Source: a virus
Lineage: Duplodnaviria > Heunggongvirae > Uroviricota > Caudoviricetes
Length of the DNA stretch: 7,983 nt
Virus record (IMG/VR): IMGVR_UViG_2529293249_000010
Strand: one strand, 5' to 3'
Below are positions 1,161-5,292 of this stretch, piece after piece (the stretch's first letter is position 1; each line of letters begins with the position of its first letter). The notes beneath the pieces were generated by a model. That model saw only the letters and a program-made list of their open reading frames with translations. It ran no database searches and was not told where the DNA came from. The translations under genes were made by a program, and so were the position numbers.

Positions 1161-3494
1161 TCAGGTTGTCGCAGGGTCGTCACATTTTGGCAGCCAGTCG
1201 CCGTAGCTTTCCTCTTTCAGCGTCAGGTTGGTCTGTATCCCCTGTTTGGTATGGCGCTTCTCGTAATTCAGTCCGTATTCCTTCAGCATCACCGGCAGCC
1301 CCAACCCGAACATTTTCAGACTGAGTACATTCCGGTAGCCGTTTGCCTCCATGTAGGCCAGATAGGCGTGATAGAGGTATTTACGGTAATTACGCGGGAT
1401 GATACTGGCGTTCCCCATATACATGCCGCTGGTCTGCGGCAGGGTTTCCAGATAGCCGATAAAATCAAACGTCGGGTCGGCATCCCGTTTGATGTTCAGC
1501 GCCTCGTCTGAGTTCTGCTGGGACTGAAGCAGTGACCGGGCGAGCATCGGGTCGCTGAATTTCTGCATCAGGTGACGCACGATGACCGCCAGCTCGCGGG
1601 TGATTTTGTCCTTAAGCTGCGGGTCGCGCTCCTGCGGGGCTATCTGTTCCGGGAAGTGAATAATCACCCGCCGGCGTGACACGCCGCCGCTGCGGTCGGT
1701 GAAGCGCATCGGGTTATTGTTCACGGCCAGAATTACCGCCGGGATATGCGTGGAGTATGCATCCCGGTATTTCGGGTCAACGGACACCGCATCGCCGCCG
1801 GTGATGGCCTTGAGTCCGGCACCGTCGCCGCTCCATTTTTCCTGGTCCGGCAGGCGTATCAGTGAGAAGCCAGTTAACGCGGCACGTTCACGCGGGGATT
1901 CCAGCGTCTCAATGGTGGCCGACGTGGCGTTATCCTCCCCGGCCAGCAGGGTGGCTATTTCGGCCATGATACTTTTGCCGCTGCCGCCGGGACCGGTCAC
2001 CTCCAGAAAGAGCTGCCAGTCGTAGCGGTTTGCCAGCACCATAAACAGTGCGGCCAGAATTACGTCGCGTTTTTCCGCACGACCACCGGCAGCACGGTCA
2101 AGCCAGCGCCAGAACGCGGGGGCGTGGGTTTCCAGCGTTTCCCCTTCCACCGGCGGGGTGAAATCCACATCGCACAGGGTACGCATCCAGTGTGACGGAC
2201 TGTGCGGGTGGAACGTGCCGTTCTGCGTGTCGAGCACGCCGTTACGAAAGCCAATCAGGCGGCGGGAGGGGGCTTCCTGCTGCGGAATAATCAGCTTCAG
2301 GGTGTCCACCACGGAGGCCACCTTCCCGGAGGAGAACGGCGCACGCAGACGCTGAAACAGCCCGGCCACATCCCGGGCAAAGTCCTGTGGCGGCAGCACC
2401 TTCCAGACACCATTTTCATAGCGGGACAGAAGCTGGCCGTTGGCATCGACCGCGAGCGCCTCGCCGTAATGCTCATAGATACGCATGGCCTTTTCGCTGG
2501 TACTCATGGCGGAAAACTCTGCTTCGCTCATGGTGTCGAACGGGCTTTCAGCCGGTGGCCGGATGGCATCATAAATGGCCTTACGGGTGGCCTCCCCGCC
2601 GTACTGCGTGAAGGCATCATTCCAGTCACCGAAGACCGGCGGCAGGGCAACAACACCTTCACACGCATCTGCGGCTGCGGCGGCTTTTTTCTGGCCGTCA
2701 CCGCTGAGGTCACGGTCTGCGGCAAGGACAATCTGACAGGCCGGATGCTTCTGCCGGGCAAGGCTGGCCAGAGAAAGGAGGTTCACGGAAGAAAGCGCCA
2801 CCATCACCGTTTCACCGGTCAGGTGATGTACGGTAAGTGCGGTCGCGTATCCCTCCGCTATCCACAGACGTTTTCCGGCCTGATTCTGTCCTTCAAGGGT
2901 GTGACAGGTGCCCCTGACCTGTCCGCCTTTCAGGGTGCGCTTACGGCCGTCAGCACTGATTAACTGAAGGTTAACCAGTTCGCCGCTGTCGTCATACAGT
3001 GGCACCACAAGGTCACCGGCACGCCAGCTCACGCCACCGGCTCTGTGTGTGCCGGTCAGCATCCGGCATTCCCGGCCGGGAAAGCCCTTGCGGGTCAGGT
3101 AGGCGTTACCGGTTCCGGGACGGGTTTTTGCCATCAGGGTTTGTGCCAGTGCGGCGGCGTTCTTCCGGGCAGCGTCTGTTTCAGCACCGGCGGCGGCCGT
3201 CACTGCCGGGTCAGCCGGGGGCAGGCTGCCGGTCACGGCAGCCACCTTTGCGGCCGCGTCGGACGGAGAGACACCAAACACCTTTTCAACCAGTTTCAGG
3301 CCGTCACCGGCACCACACTGATTGCAGTACCAGGTGCCGCGCCCCTCCCTGTCATCAAAACGGAAGCGGTCACTCCCGCCACAGACCGGACAGGGCTGAT
3401 GACGGTTTTTCAGCACCTGAATCCCCAGCGCCGGGAGAATACGCGGCCAGTGGCCGAGCGCATGGCTGACGGTGGCGGTTACGTTCATTTTCAT
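1161..3494 (-). CDS. alpha: Alpha: bifunctional DNA primase / helicase with C-terminal origin-binding domain (777 aa)
   Basis: 777-aa ORF, ATG at 3494 with GAAGGAG Shine-Dalgarno 8 nt upstream. N-terminal zinc ribbon CPVCGG...YCNQCG (residues 35-60); primase EGYATA motif (residues 214-219, nt 2838-2855); Walker A GPGGSGKS (nt 1971-1994). The iterons it should bind are present at crr and ori. Confidence 0.95.
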   Translation of the reverse strand: MKMNVTATVSHALGHWPRILPALGIQVLKNRHQPCPVCGGSDRFRFDDREGRGTWYCNQCGAGDGLKLVEKVFGVSPSDAAAKVAAVTGSLPPADPAVTAAAGAETDAARKNAAALAQTLMAKTRPGTGNAYLTRKGFPGRECRMLTGTHRAGGVSWRAGDLVVPLYDDSGELVNLQLISADGRKRTLKGGQVRGTCHTLEGQNQAGKRLWIAEGYATALTVHHLTGETVMVALSSVNLLSLASLARQKHPACQIVLAADRDLSGDGQKKAAAAADACEGVVALPPVFGDWNDAFTQYGGEATRKAIYDAIRPPAESPFDTMSEAEFSAMSTSEKAMRIYEHYGEALAVDANGQLLSRYENGVWKVLPPQDFARDVAGLFQRLRAPFSSGKVASVVDTLKLIIPQQEAPSRRLIGFRNGVLDTQNGTFHPHSPSHWMRTLCDVDFTPPVEGETLETHAPAFWRWLDRAAGGRAEKRDVILAALFMVLANRYDWQLFLEVTGPGGSGKSIMAEIATLLAGEDNATSATIETLESPRERAALTGFSLIRLPDQEKWSGDGAGLKAITGGDAVSVDPKYRDAYSTHIPAVILAVNNNPMRFTDRSGGVSRRRVIIHFPEQIAPQERDPQLKDKITRELAVIVRHLMQKFSDPMLARSLLQSQQNSDEALNIKRDADPTFDFIGYLETLPQTSGMYMGNASIIPRNYRKYLYHAYLAYMEANGYRNVLSLKMFGLGLPVMLKEYGLNYEKRHTKQGIQTNLTLKEESYGDWLPKCDDPATT

Positions 3495-3508
3495 GGTGTT
3501 GTTCTCCT

Positions 3509-3829
3509 TCAGTGCAGTACCGGCGCTTTTATGTGACGGGCACAGAGTTCATCCATCACAACCAGCCCGAGAAAGGACAGCGACGGCGCGGCCTTCAGGG
3601 GGCCGGATTCCATTAAATCTTCCAGCAGGGCACAGGCTATCTGACGCCCTTTTTCCTCACCGTGCTGGCGCAGATAAAAGCCTTCCAGCTCAGCGGCGAT
3701 GGCCGCCTCCAGTGATTCAAGGGTGAGATGCGGGTAGCGGTGCTGACGTTCGCACACGGTCAGCCAGGCACAGGCGACAGCGCGACGGTAAAGGGCTGCG
3801 CGTAAGACGGGCGGTAAGGGGGTTTTCAT
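3509..3829 (-). CDS. 106-aa conserved hypothetical protein of the left operon (position and length of P4 orf106); function unknown
   Basis: ATG at 3829 with GGAGG Shine-Dalgarno 7 nt upstream; TGA stop at 3511-3509 sits inside the alpha ribosome-binding site, 14 nt before the alpha ATG. No motif I can recognise. Confidence 0.75.
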
Positions 3830-3896
3830 TTGCTTTCCTCCCTGTGACAGATGACTGCATTCCGTGCCGGTTGCATTAACTGATAAGGCATATCTG

Positions 3897-3936
3897 CGTC
3901 TCCTGAAGACGTGCGTATCCCTGCGCGAATACGCAC
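3897..3936. other. Two adjacent hairpins in the 135-bp orf151-orf106 spacer (possible attenuator, processing site or antisense terminator)
   Basis: CGTCT (3897-3901) / AGACG (3907-3911) with a 5-nt loop; GTGCGTAT (3911-3918) / ATACGCAC (3929-3936) with a 10-nt loop. On the plus strand the second stem is followed by ATTTAATTTTT (3937-3947). This is the only sizeable non-coding gap in the otherwise coupled left operon. Confidence 0.4.
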
Positions 3937-3964
3937 ATTTAATTTTTCGGGTGTCGTTTTTTAA

Positions 3965-4420
3965 TTACAGATAATTGCGGTAACTGTTATCCGGGGTGAT
4001 TTCCGGGTCAGGCTCCGTGCGGGGAATTTCCCGCCATTCCCGCGCCACCGGTGCCGCCCGGCTGACCGGAACAGGGTCCTGCGGGTAAATATCCAGATAT
4101 TTCTCCCGCCATTTCTGTAATTCCGGGTCTCCGGCCATTTCTTTCAGTACCGCATGCCGGTTTACGGGGCTGCGTTTGAACAGGTCAGGACGGTCACAGG
4201 TAAATTCCCGCAGAAAACGCCCCAGCGGGATGTCTGTGGTGCGCCCGTCGGCGAGGATACGCACAAGGATACTGAATTTACGGCGGTACGGGTTCCAGAC
4301 AATTTCCGGGCAGCGGTACGGCATTTCCCACGGAATACCGTCTTCCAGAATGCCGACCACGGCCACATCGGGAAAACCGGCAGAACGGTAAATCTCACCG
4401 GGCTGGGGAAAATCAAACAT
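3965..4420 (-). CDS. 151-aa conserved hypothetical protein of the left operon (position and length of P4 orf151); function unknown
   Basis: ATG at 4420-4418; the upstream eps stop TGA (4415-4413) lies 2 nt inside this gene (ATGTTTGA), suggesting translational coupling. TAA stop at 3967-3965. Confidence 0.82.
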   Translation of the reverse strand: MFDFPQPGEIYRSAGFPDVAVVGILEDGIPWEMPYRCPEIVWNPYRRKFSILVRILADGRTTDIPLGRFLREFTCDRPDLFKRSPVNRHAVLKEMAGDPELQKWREKYLDIYPQDPVPVSRAAPVAREWREIPRTEPDPEITPDNSYRNYL

Positions 4421-4700
4421 GCGTCCTGTCTCCCCGGTCTTTCTGCTGGGCGAGAAAATCGCGGCACAGGCCTTTGGCTTTCAGCTCATTCAGCACAAAA
4501 TCAATATCTTCATTCAGGTAGCTGAAAATATGCGGAATGTAGAGCTGATGGAGGCCGGAGAGTTCACGGTGAATCAAATCACCCCCAACAAACTGGGATA
4601 CGGCGCTGGCGCGGTTGAGCTTATGGTAAGCCTCAATGCTGAGGTGTTCACGGGCGTCATGACGCGCTGAGACGGTCTGAGGGGCTTTTTTATTACGCAC
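4413..4700 (-). CDS. eps: Epsilon-like protein (95 aa, GTG start): candidate anti-repressor that derepresses the P2-type helper prophage
   Basis: No in-frame ATG exists downstream of the kil stop. GTG at 4700-4698 is preceded by GGAGG with a 6-nt spacer and gives exactly 95 codons; the kil stop TAA (4695-4693) lies 2 nt inside (GTGCGTAA). The coding-like region starts here, while the upstream part of the same frame is Cys/Pro/Trp-rich. Assignment to eps rests on position and recalled length. Confidence 0.68.
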
Positions 4701-4890
4701 GGGACACCTCCACCACCGGCAGACGGGCAGCAAGGGAGAGCACATAGTCACGGACAAGGGAACGGCGGGCGCTGCGTTCATCACCGGCGACGGTGCGAAG
4801 CATACAGATACGGGGATGACGGTCTGCGCGACGGACAGCCGCAAACACAAAGACAAATTCAGGGTGTGAGGGGGTAAGGGTCGTAGCCAT
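4693..4890 (-). CDS. kil: Kil (65 aa), first translated gene downstream of PLE; nested in-frame within eta
   Basis: ATG at 4890-4888 preceded by GGAGG (plus-strand CCTCC 4898-4902) with a 7-nt spacer; 65 codons; TAA at 4695-4693. The seqC element of the immunity leader (4899-4945) directly abuts this ribosome-binding site. Confidence 0.75.
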
Positions 4891-5292
4891 AAGGCAACCT
4901 CCGATAACAGCGTAAATGACGCTATCGCCGGAGTTTCCACGCTCGATGGCGATAGCCCAGACGGGGGTGGAAATACCGGCGTTATCGGAAACCGGCCAGC
5001 CCGGAGGCTGCCCCGCCTGAGCTACCATTGACTCTGCGGTATAATGAGCGGACGCGGGCAGAATGCACGGAGTGCCATTTGCTCGACTGACCACACACCA
5101 CACCATAATCTGGCGCTCTGTGGCGTTGATTGCGACACAAAAAAAGACGCATGGCGCGTCATATGTCGCCGATAACATACTCGGGTTTCCACGCCCGGCT
5201 GCCGATTTTGCGGCAGCGGAAAAACTATATCCGCAAATGCCGGAAAAAGGCAAGCCAGAAAAAGGAAGTTTTTGCAGAACAGGCATCATCAT
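4693..5292 (-). CDS. eta: Eta (about 197-199 aa), long ORF beginning upstream of PLE and ending as kil; translated from PLL transcripts
   Basis: Same frame as kil, open back to ATGATGATG (5292-5284), giving 199/198/197 aa. The vis stop TGA (5291-5289) is embedded in the triple ATG. The frame continues upstream to an ATG at 5337 (214 aa) that lies inside vis. It runs through the whole immunity leader, so it can only be translated from PLL read-through RNA. Confidence 0.55.
4899..4945 (-). promoter_or_regulatory. seqC: target of CI RNA in the left-operon leader, abutting the kil ribosome-binding site
   Basis: The transcript-strand sequence carries GCGUGGAAAC...GUUAUCGG, as does seqA; both blocks are complementary to the seqB region (4966-4988). 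Position is immediately 5' of the kil Shine-Dalgarno. Confidence 0.5.
4950..5020 (-). ncRNA. cI: CI immunity RNA (seqB region); boundaries approximate
   Basis: The plus strand at 4966-4988 reads GTGGAAATACCGGCGTTATCGG, so the minus-strand transcript carries CCGAUAAC...UUUCCAC, complementary to the GUGGAAAC and GUUAUCGG blocks of seqA and seqC. The region is GC-rich with several internal inverted repeats (for example CCGG...CCGG). Exact processed ends cannot be read from sequence. Confidence 0.5.
5165..5204 (-). promoter_or_regulatory. seqA: CI RNA target at about +13 to +52 of the PLE transcript
   Basis: The transcript-strand sequence CGGCAGCCGGGCGUGGAAACCCGAGUAUGUUAUCGGCGAC shares the GUGGAAAC and GUUAUCGG blocks with seqC. 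Confidence 0.5.
5224..5253 (-). promoter_or_regulatory. PLE, sigma70-type promoter of the left operon / immunity transcript
   Basis: On the minus strand TTGCCT (5253-5248) - 18-bp spacer - TATAGT (5229-5224); predicted start near 5217, just upstream of seqA and about 35 bp downstream of the vis stop. Confidence 0.5.

Follow-up and report, generated by a model that had tools for sequence, protein, structure and literature searches.

Genes and features between eps and alpha

The window, a stretch of 7,983 nucleotides from a virus of the Caudoviricetes (IMG/VR record IMGVR_UViG_2529293249_000010), contains two ORFs on its minus strand, ORF106 and ORF151, which are flanked by a 777-aa ORF and by plus-strand sid, delta and psu-like ORFs (Table 1). 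Compared with the satellite phage P4 (X51522/NC_001609), positions 3400-4600 show 98.6% identity at the DNA level and the same two ORFs are labelled ORF106 and ORF151 there. According to the P4 annotation both are situated between epsilon and alpha, and no other ORF is present in this interval. The whole window was matched in 1879 of 5426 complete Escherichia coli genomes, at chromosomal sites in all cases and never on a plasmid, which points to an integrated P4-type satellite. As such, the element in the window is a chromosomal relative of the reference P4 isolate and not that isolate itself.

Table 1 Coordinates of the features in the window and in two related E. coli loci
Feature	Position	Strand	Description and basis
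alpha, primase-helicase and origin-binding protein, target of Cnr	1161..3494	-	777-aa ORF; P4 annotation
cnr (P4 ORF106, Pfam DUF5375; identified by elimination)	3509..3829	-	ORF, 106 aa, ATG start; all-helical (model)
21-aa mini-ORF with AGGAG site	3826..3891	-	translation; TGA overlaps the cnr ATG (ATGA)
perfect 8-bp inverted repeat GTGCGTAT-N10-ATACGCAC	3911..3936	.	begins 29 nt past the orf151 stop
orf151 (P4 ORF151, phrog_10748)	3965..4420	-	ORF, 151 aa, ATG start
eps stop/orf151 start overlap ATGTTTGA, translational-coupling junction	4413..4420	-	sequence reading
eps, helper derepression protein	4413..4700	-	PF25738, E 7.7e-51; P4 annotation
Ash-domain (PF10554)/Icd-like 182-aa ORF, then 75-aa gene, cnr and primase gene	L002 3818-4590; L003 3821-4593		P4-like elements of E. 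coli

Reading of the sequence shows a Shine-Dalgarno site in front of each ORF, GGGAGGA (3836-3842) located 6 nt ahead of the ATG of ORF106 and GGGGAG (4430-4435) located 9 nt ahead of the ATG of ORF151, and the stop codon of ORF106 (3509-3511) abuts the AGGAG site of alpha, the ATG of which lies at 3494. Clustering at 90% yielded 221 homologous clusters for ORF106 and 102 for ORF151, and every named homologue belongs to the Enterobacterales. In a comparison with orthologues of eight other genera, including Kluyvera, Scandinavium, Serratia, Citrobacter, Tenebrionibacter, Buttiauxella and Cedecea, the median dN/dS was 0.13 for ORF106 and 0.23 for ORF151 at a dS of around 1; for ORF151 it amounted to 0.20 in residues 1-110 and to 0.36 in the tail. 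This confirmed that ORF106 and ORF151 are conserved genes under purifying selection and not chance ORFs. A preliminary description of this DNA had presented them as two conserved P4 left-operon genes with good translation signals, immediately upstream of alpha and devoid of a recognisable motif. All of this is borne out: the coordinates are exact, the P4 annotation and the gene order agree, and we likewise recognised no motif in either protein.

The many truncated and fused orf151 variants in the databases, together with the nucleotide-conserved palindrome just downstream of the gene, could be taken to mean that orf151 is a decaying or non-functional ORF, or that it is conserved for the sake of a signal in the nucleic acid, for instance an RNA element or a terminator that depends on Rho. 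We consider this highly improbable, as dS is near saturation and yet dN is low, as homologues from Escherichia to Serratia, at 44-74% protein identity, preserve the reading frame and a length of 145-154 aa, and as the coupling of the orf151 start codon is conserved.

The gene order eps-orf151-(gap)-cnr-alpha, in which cnr stands for ORF106 (see below), was kept in 12 out of 12 loci of other genomes (L004-L015), save for eps in L015, where a tblastn search found no eps. The same order is present in Serratia fonticola (L018), of which the orf151 homologue is 44% identical. A scan of the coding strand from 3400 to 4800 retrieved neither a sigma-70-like promoter nor an intrinsic terminator, which fits with a single transcript for eps, both ORFs and alpha. 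The alpha ORF is intact in the window, as are its TGTTCACC iterons, and 11 copies of this alpha binding site were counted in the crr and ori regions compared to 0.3 expected by chance.

No RNA family was detected by the Rfam scan within 3509-4420. Elsewhere in the window, positions 4945-5032 and 5140-5230, both on the minus strand, matched the C4 antisense RNA (the P4 CI immunity RNA) with 77.9 bits, plus isrK and the c4-a1b1 target region. In the P4 RefSeq record a 137-aa 'cI transcriptional repressor' CDS is placed over the C4 RNA region, and in E. coli RefSeq records an overlapping ORF is called 'Icd-like'. Also in NC_001609, sid is labelled 'polarity suppression Psu-like by overcoming Rho', a label identical to the one on psu, which looks like an annotation carry-over.

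ORF106 and the copy-number gene cnr

ORF106 of the window is identical to P4 ORF106 over all 106 aa. It matches PF17345 (DUF5375) over residues 1-106 of 106 with 210.9 bits (cutoff 30) and phrog_5991, a PHROGs family of 'unknown function', with an E-value of 2.4e-55. AlphaFold2 (AF2) modelled the protein as a bundle of four to five helices (pLDDT 73.9), and neither a solved structure nor an informative fold match was found for it. As UniProt (YQ55_BPP4, 'Uncharacterized protein ORF106'), Pfam, PHROGs and RefSeq all list ORF106 as unknown, and as ORF151 carries a similar label in all databases, both genes might be regarded as uncharacterised accessory proteins that may serve replication, helper takeover or anti-defence, which is how the preliminary description saw them.

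This reading is contradicted for ORF106 by the literature. In a comparative study of P4-like elements by Moura de Sousa & Rocha (PMC8628076), P4 cnr is stated to control plasmid copy number, and the epsilon-alpha interval is reported to hold exactly two frequent families, one of which, including P4 cnr, occurs in 90% of the elements, while the other, of 75 aa, occurs in 61% of them and is not found in P4. A DUF5375 gene was seen in all loci that we examined, including elements without ORF151, and it lies directly upstream of, and co-oriented with, the primase-helicase gene in the window, in P4, in the E. coli elements L002 and L003, in L004-L015 and in L018. Since the P4 interval contains only ORF151 and ORF106, ORF106 is, by elimination, cnr; the basis of this assignment is the review-type statement in PMC8628076 combined with what the primary work on cnr reportedly describes. 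The gene was found in 1426 complete E. coli genomes, at 1841 places.

Terzano et al. (1994) reportedly defined cnr as the 106-aa ORF of P4. Loss of cnr reportedly causes over-replication and an excess of it a replication block, with the resistant mutations mapping in alpha. Ziegelin et al. (1997) are reported to have found that Cnr itself binds no DNA but stimulates specific DNA binding by alpha, the affinity of which for the iterons of ori and crr it raises. The Cnr protein of P4 and that of the window show no differences. In both, the gene occupies the same position, ending 14 nt ahead of the alpha ATG, and its Shine-Dalgarno site is arranged alike.

The view that both genes are uncharacterised consequently stands for orf151, to which no function has been assigned, and fails for orf106, for which a published function as negative copy-number regulator acting on alpha does exist (PMC8628076 and, reportedly, the primary papers); taken for the pair, it is quite unlikely. 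That orf106 was misread is explained by the fact that the databases never took up the name cnr. The function of Cnr was published three decades ago and never reached them, and both genes were already known.

A longer DUF5375 protein of 136 aa is encoded in Serratia fonticola (L018, 5536-8621), where its gene overlaps that of another type of primase-helicase (Zn_Ribbon_Prim, Toprim_3 and DUF927). A Cnr-like regulator thus appears to accompany replication proteins of more than one type.

The spacer between orf151 and cnr

The gap between orf151 and cnr measures 135 nt in the window and in P4 and approximately 325 nt in relatives from other genera. In L007 and L009-L015, it is filled by an intact ORF of approximately 86 aa, the stop of which overlaps the cnr ATG. 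This ORF shares 78% identity with the 75-aa L002 protein, which identifies it as a member of the family reported to be absent from P4 (PMC8628076). Within P4-like satellites, the 75-aa family is located between orf151 (or an Ash/Icd-like ORF) and cnr, its stop overlapping the cnr start; in L002 and L003 the overlaps among the Ash-domain ORF, the 75-aa gene and cnr amount to 1-4 nt. In the DNA alignment, 65 internal codons of this gene are missing in frame from P4 and the window, both of which retain its Shine-Dalgarno site, its ATG and its first and last codons. Judged by this alignment, the 135-nt gap with its 21-aa mini-ORF is the relic of a gene of 75-86 aa after an in-frame deletion. That the frame and the ATGA overlap are both preserved suggests that the mini-ORF is selected for translational coupling to cnr. 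Among 987 E. coli genomes with a match to the end of orf151, only 16 have the full gene of 75-86 aa beside orf151. In E. coli, the eps-orf151 cassette hardly ever occurs together with an intact 75-aa gene, whereas other genera have both. We also considered that the 75-aa protein could be a diverged epsilon and rejected this (BLASTP E = 19).

From Escherichia to Cedecea, the nucleotides of the palindrome in the spacer are conserved, far above the synonymous sites of the flanking genes. It forms a hairpin in the RNA fold, with a weaker stem in L014 and L015; compensatory changes are absent from the alignment of the spacer across genera, and the z-score of the whole-spacer fold is only -1.3. An intrinsic terminator and a part of a promoter were both rejected as explanations, given that the scans found neither and that a T run is lacking. 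In X02534 (Lin, 1984), the element is given as a 'region of dyad symmetry'. It may represent the 3' end or a processing hairpin of an RNA, possibly of the short PLE transcript, or a protein-binding site. P4 makes transcripts of 1.3 kb and 4.1 kb from PLE. By distance, the short one would end at about the palindrome and the long one at the annotated alpha terminator, which we regard as a lead only.

orf151 and its association with eps

ORF151 of the window shares 148 of 151 residues (98%) with P4 ORF151 (YQ54_BPP4), the substitutions from window to P4 being E39D, P116T and I141T, and the two genes agree in their overlap with the eps stop and in the spacer ahead of cnr; neither protein has a described function. 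It matches phrog_10748 over residues 1-151 of 151 (E 1.4e-101). Outside this family, no sequence relatives of the protein were found in the databases searched. Pfam, NCBIfam and PADLOC returned nothing for the window protein, nor for 31 family members at E-values up to 10, and phmmer and profile searches of the PDB sequences gave nothing significant, the profile producing a weak match of residues 10-63 to eL21, an SH3-like barrel (E 0.065). An HMM scan of 1.84 billion representative proteins returned 29 matches, all of them members or fragments of the family itself, and among 50,697 phage records ORF151 was found in P4 only. A full-text search of the accessible literature gave no mention of P4 orf151 and nothing on the locus tags or on DUF5375. 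A Foldseek search of the orf151 model against the viral structures of BFVD yielded nothing below an E-value of 1e-3, and the DUF1653 profile (PF07866) did not match.

In the alignment of the family, residues 1-110 are strongly conserved, with an invariant N-terminus MFDFPQ, invariant C37 and C75, and an aromatic-rich GIPW-MPYRCP-VWNPYR signature. The tail after residue 110 is variable, consists of proline for 19.5% and ends in a conserved PDNSYR(H/N)YL motif. Several database entries deviate from this pattern. One homologue (P0082) carries systematic changes of Pro to Phe or Leu and of Arg to Cys or Trp, a pattern of C-to-T converted reads (bisulfite-like or deaminated) which marks it as a Logan assembly artefact and not a variant. 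In three others (P0041, P0047 and P0099), N-terminal parts of orf151 are joined to the C-terminus of alpha or to cnr through internal deletions in decaying satellite copies.

The best AF2 model of ORF151 has a pLDDT of 66.7, compared to 54-63 for the other four; residues 1-110 mostly score 70-89, the conserved loop 34-37 falls below 50 and residues 113-151 are disordered. Four strands are followed by helices at 66-109. With moderate confidence, Orf151 is predicted to have an SH3/Tudor-like barrel along with a helical part and a proline-rich tail that is disordered. No relationship at the sequence level links it to the N-terminal domain of CarD/CdnL, the RID of Mfd or the C-terminal domain of UvrD/PcrA (Pfam, E-values up to 10), and the aligned identity with CarD_TRCF/Tudor-like hits is 6-17% for most and 23% for Myxococcus xanthus CdnL. 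Unlike these domains, ORF151 possesses a long conserved insertion between strands (approximately residues 27-48), an extra helical subdomain and the proline-rich tail, and the predicted fold is common to many unrelated Tudor, KOW and SH3 domains that score nearly equally.

The start codon of orf151 overlaps the stop of the upstream gene in 9 out of 10 loci (the window, P4 and seven loci of other genera), the overlap being ATGTTTGA or, in L015, ATGTTTAA. In this Cedecea locus the upstream gene is not epsilon, and in L014 the scan gave no overlapping ORF upstream of orf151. Among the complete E. coli genomes, eps was present in 993 (1188 places) and orf151 in 1001 (1209 places) with matching identity-band profiles, so that the two genes co-occur almost one to one in this species. 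The 44%-identical homologue of S. fonticola likewise lies between a PF25738 (Derepression) gene and a DUF5375 gene, and the E. coli elements L002 and L003 contain neither eps nor orf151. This shared presence and absence, which extends to the palindrome behind orf151, indicates that eps and orf151 behave as one indel cassette. Adjacency and co-occurrence could, however, also reflect plain linkage within such a cassette, with no shared function. In-frame eps-orf151 fusions were found in 22 database sequences (the 244-aa protein P0003). They correspond to the loss of one G from the GGGG run at 4432-4435, with the junction at 4421-4436, and could represent either a homopolymer sequencing error or a real variant.

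Different roles can be envisaged for orf151. It could be an accessory factor or regulator of replication that works with Cnr and alpha, for instance in primase-helicase loading or in copy-number control, given that it shares their operon, where it lies shortly ahead of cnr-alpha in all loci, and that its tail, with the conserved C-terminal motif, resembles to our eye the short docking motifs of replication proteins. Nevertheless, L002 and L003 keep cnr-alpha without orf151, cnr occurs in approximately 40% more E. coli genomes than orf151, and orf151 tracks eps and not cnr. Moreover, alpha and host proteins suffice for replication from P4 ori/crr in vitro. A replication role is for these reasons unlikely, and the persistence of cnr-alpha without orf151 favours a role tied to epsilon and helper takeover.

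A factor for anti-defence or host takeover with no relation to eps, such as an inhibitor of a host or helper immunity protein that is kept beside eps only by linkage, would agree with a gene that is early-expressed, small, non-enzymatic and satellite-specific, properties that we consider typical of anti-defence genes, and with its narrow taxonomic range and its occurrence in a single phage record. We consider such a role unlikely, since orf151 resembles no known anti-defence fold or family, is well conserved instead of rapidly diversifying as arms-race genes usually do, and is not located in the variable hotspots known from P4-like elements (PMC8628076).

Taken together, we consider it probable that the two genes have separate roles, orf106 being cnr and acting on alpha, and orf151 encoding a protein-binding adaptor coupled to eps. 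Cnr is a small helical protein whose gene directly precedes that of the alpha primase-helicase, with which it is produced, and by the published mechanism it would bind alpha and not DNA and in this way increase the affinity of alpha for the TGTTCACC iterons of ori and crr. The second gene of the cassette, orf151, is gained and lost together with eps and is missing from those P4-like lineages in which the Ash-domain ORF directly precedes the 75-aa gene. For Orf151, the prediction is a non-enzymatic protein-binding adaptor in which an SH3/Tudor-like beta-barrel is joined by a short helical subdomain and by a disordered, proline-rich tail with a conserved aromatic end motif. Soon after infection or induction, Orf151 may bind a protein of the helper or of the host and as such aid or extend the takeover of the helper mediated by eps. 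Cloned eps alone reportedly derepresses P2 (Liu et al., 1997), from which it follows that orf151 would not be required for that step. By analogy with the Tudor-like domains of CarD, Mfd and UvrD, one candidate target of Orf151 would be RNA polymerase beta. The more specific proposal that Orf151 is a satellite-specific Tudor-like adaptor on RNA polymerase beta (or on a helper regulator), which forms a two-protein helper-takeover module with epsilon, is speculative and has a low probability. If true, it would define a new class of satellite-encoded transcription modulator, and the palindrome would mark the 3' end of a separate early eps-orf151 transcript, the dosage of which is uncoupled from that of cnr-alpha.

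What is new here is modest and comprises the behaviour of eps and orf151 as a cassette, the probable SH3/Tudor-like adaptor architecture of Orf151 and the reading of the gap as a deletion relic; neither the naming gap around Cnr nor the orf151 cassette overturns current understanding. [quoted passage not shown] Cnr is experimentally characterised and yet 'unknown' in UniProt, Pfam (DUF5375), PHROGs and RefSeq, so that thousands of homologues could be given a name. To our knowledge, orf151 is one of the few genes of the P4 core region still without a function, while it is carried by approximately 18% of the complete E. coli genomes and maintained by purifying selection. The inheritance of eps and orf151 as one cassette points to helper takeover over replication as the process in which orf151 takes part, and thereby offers a testable direction.
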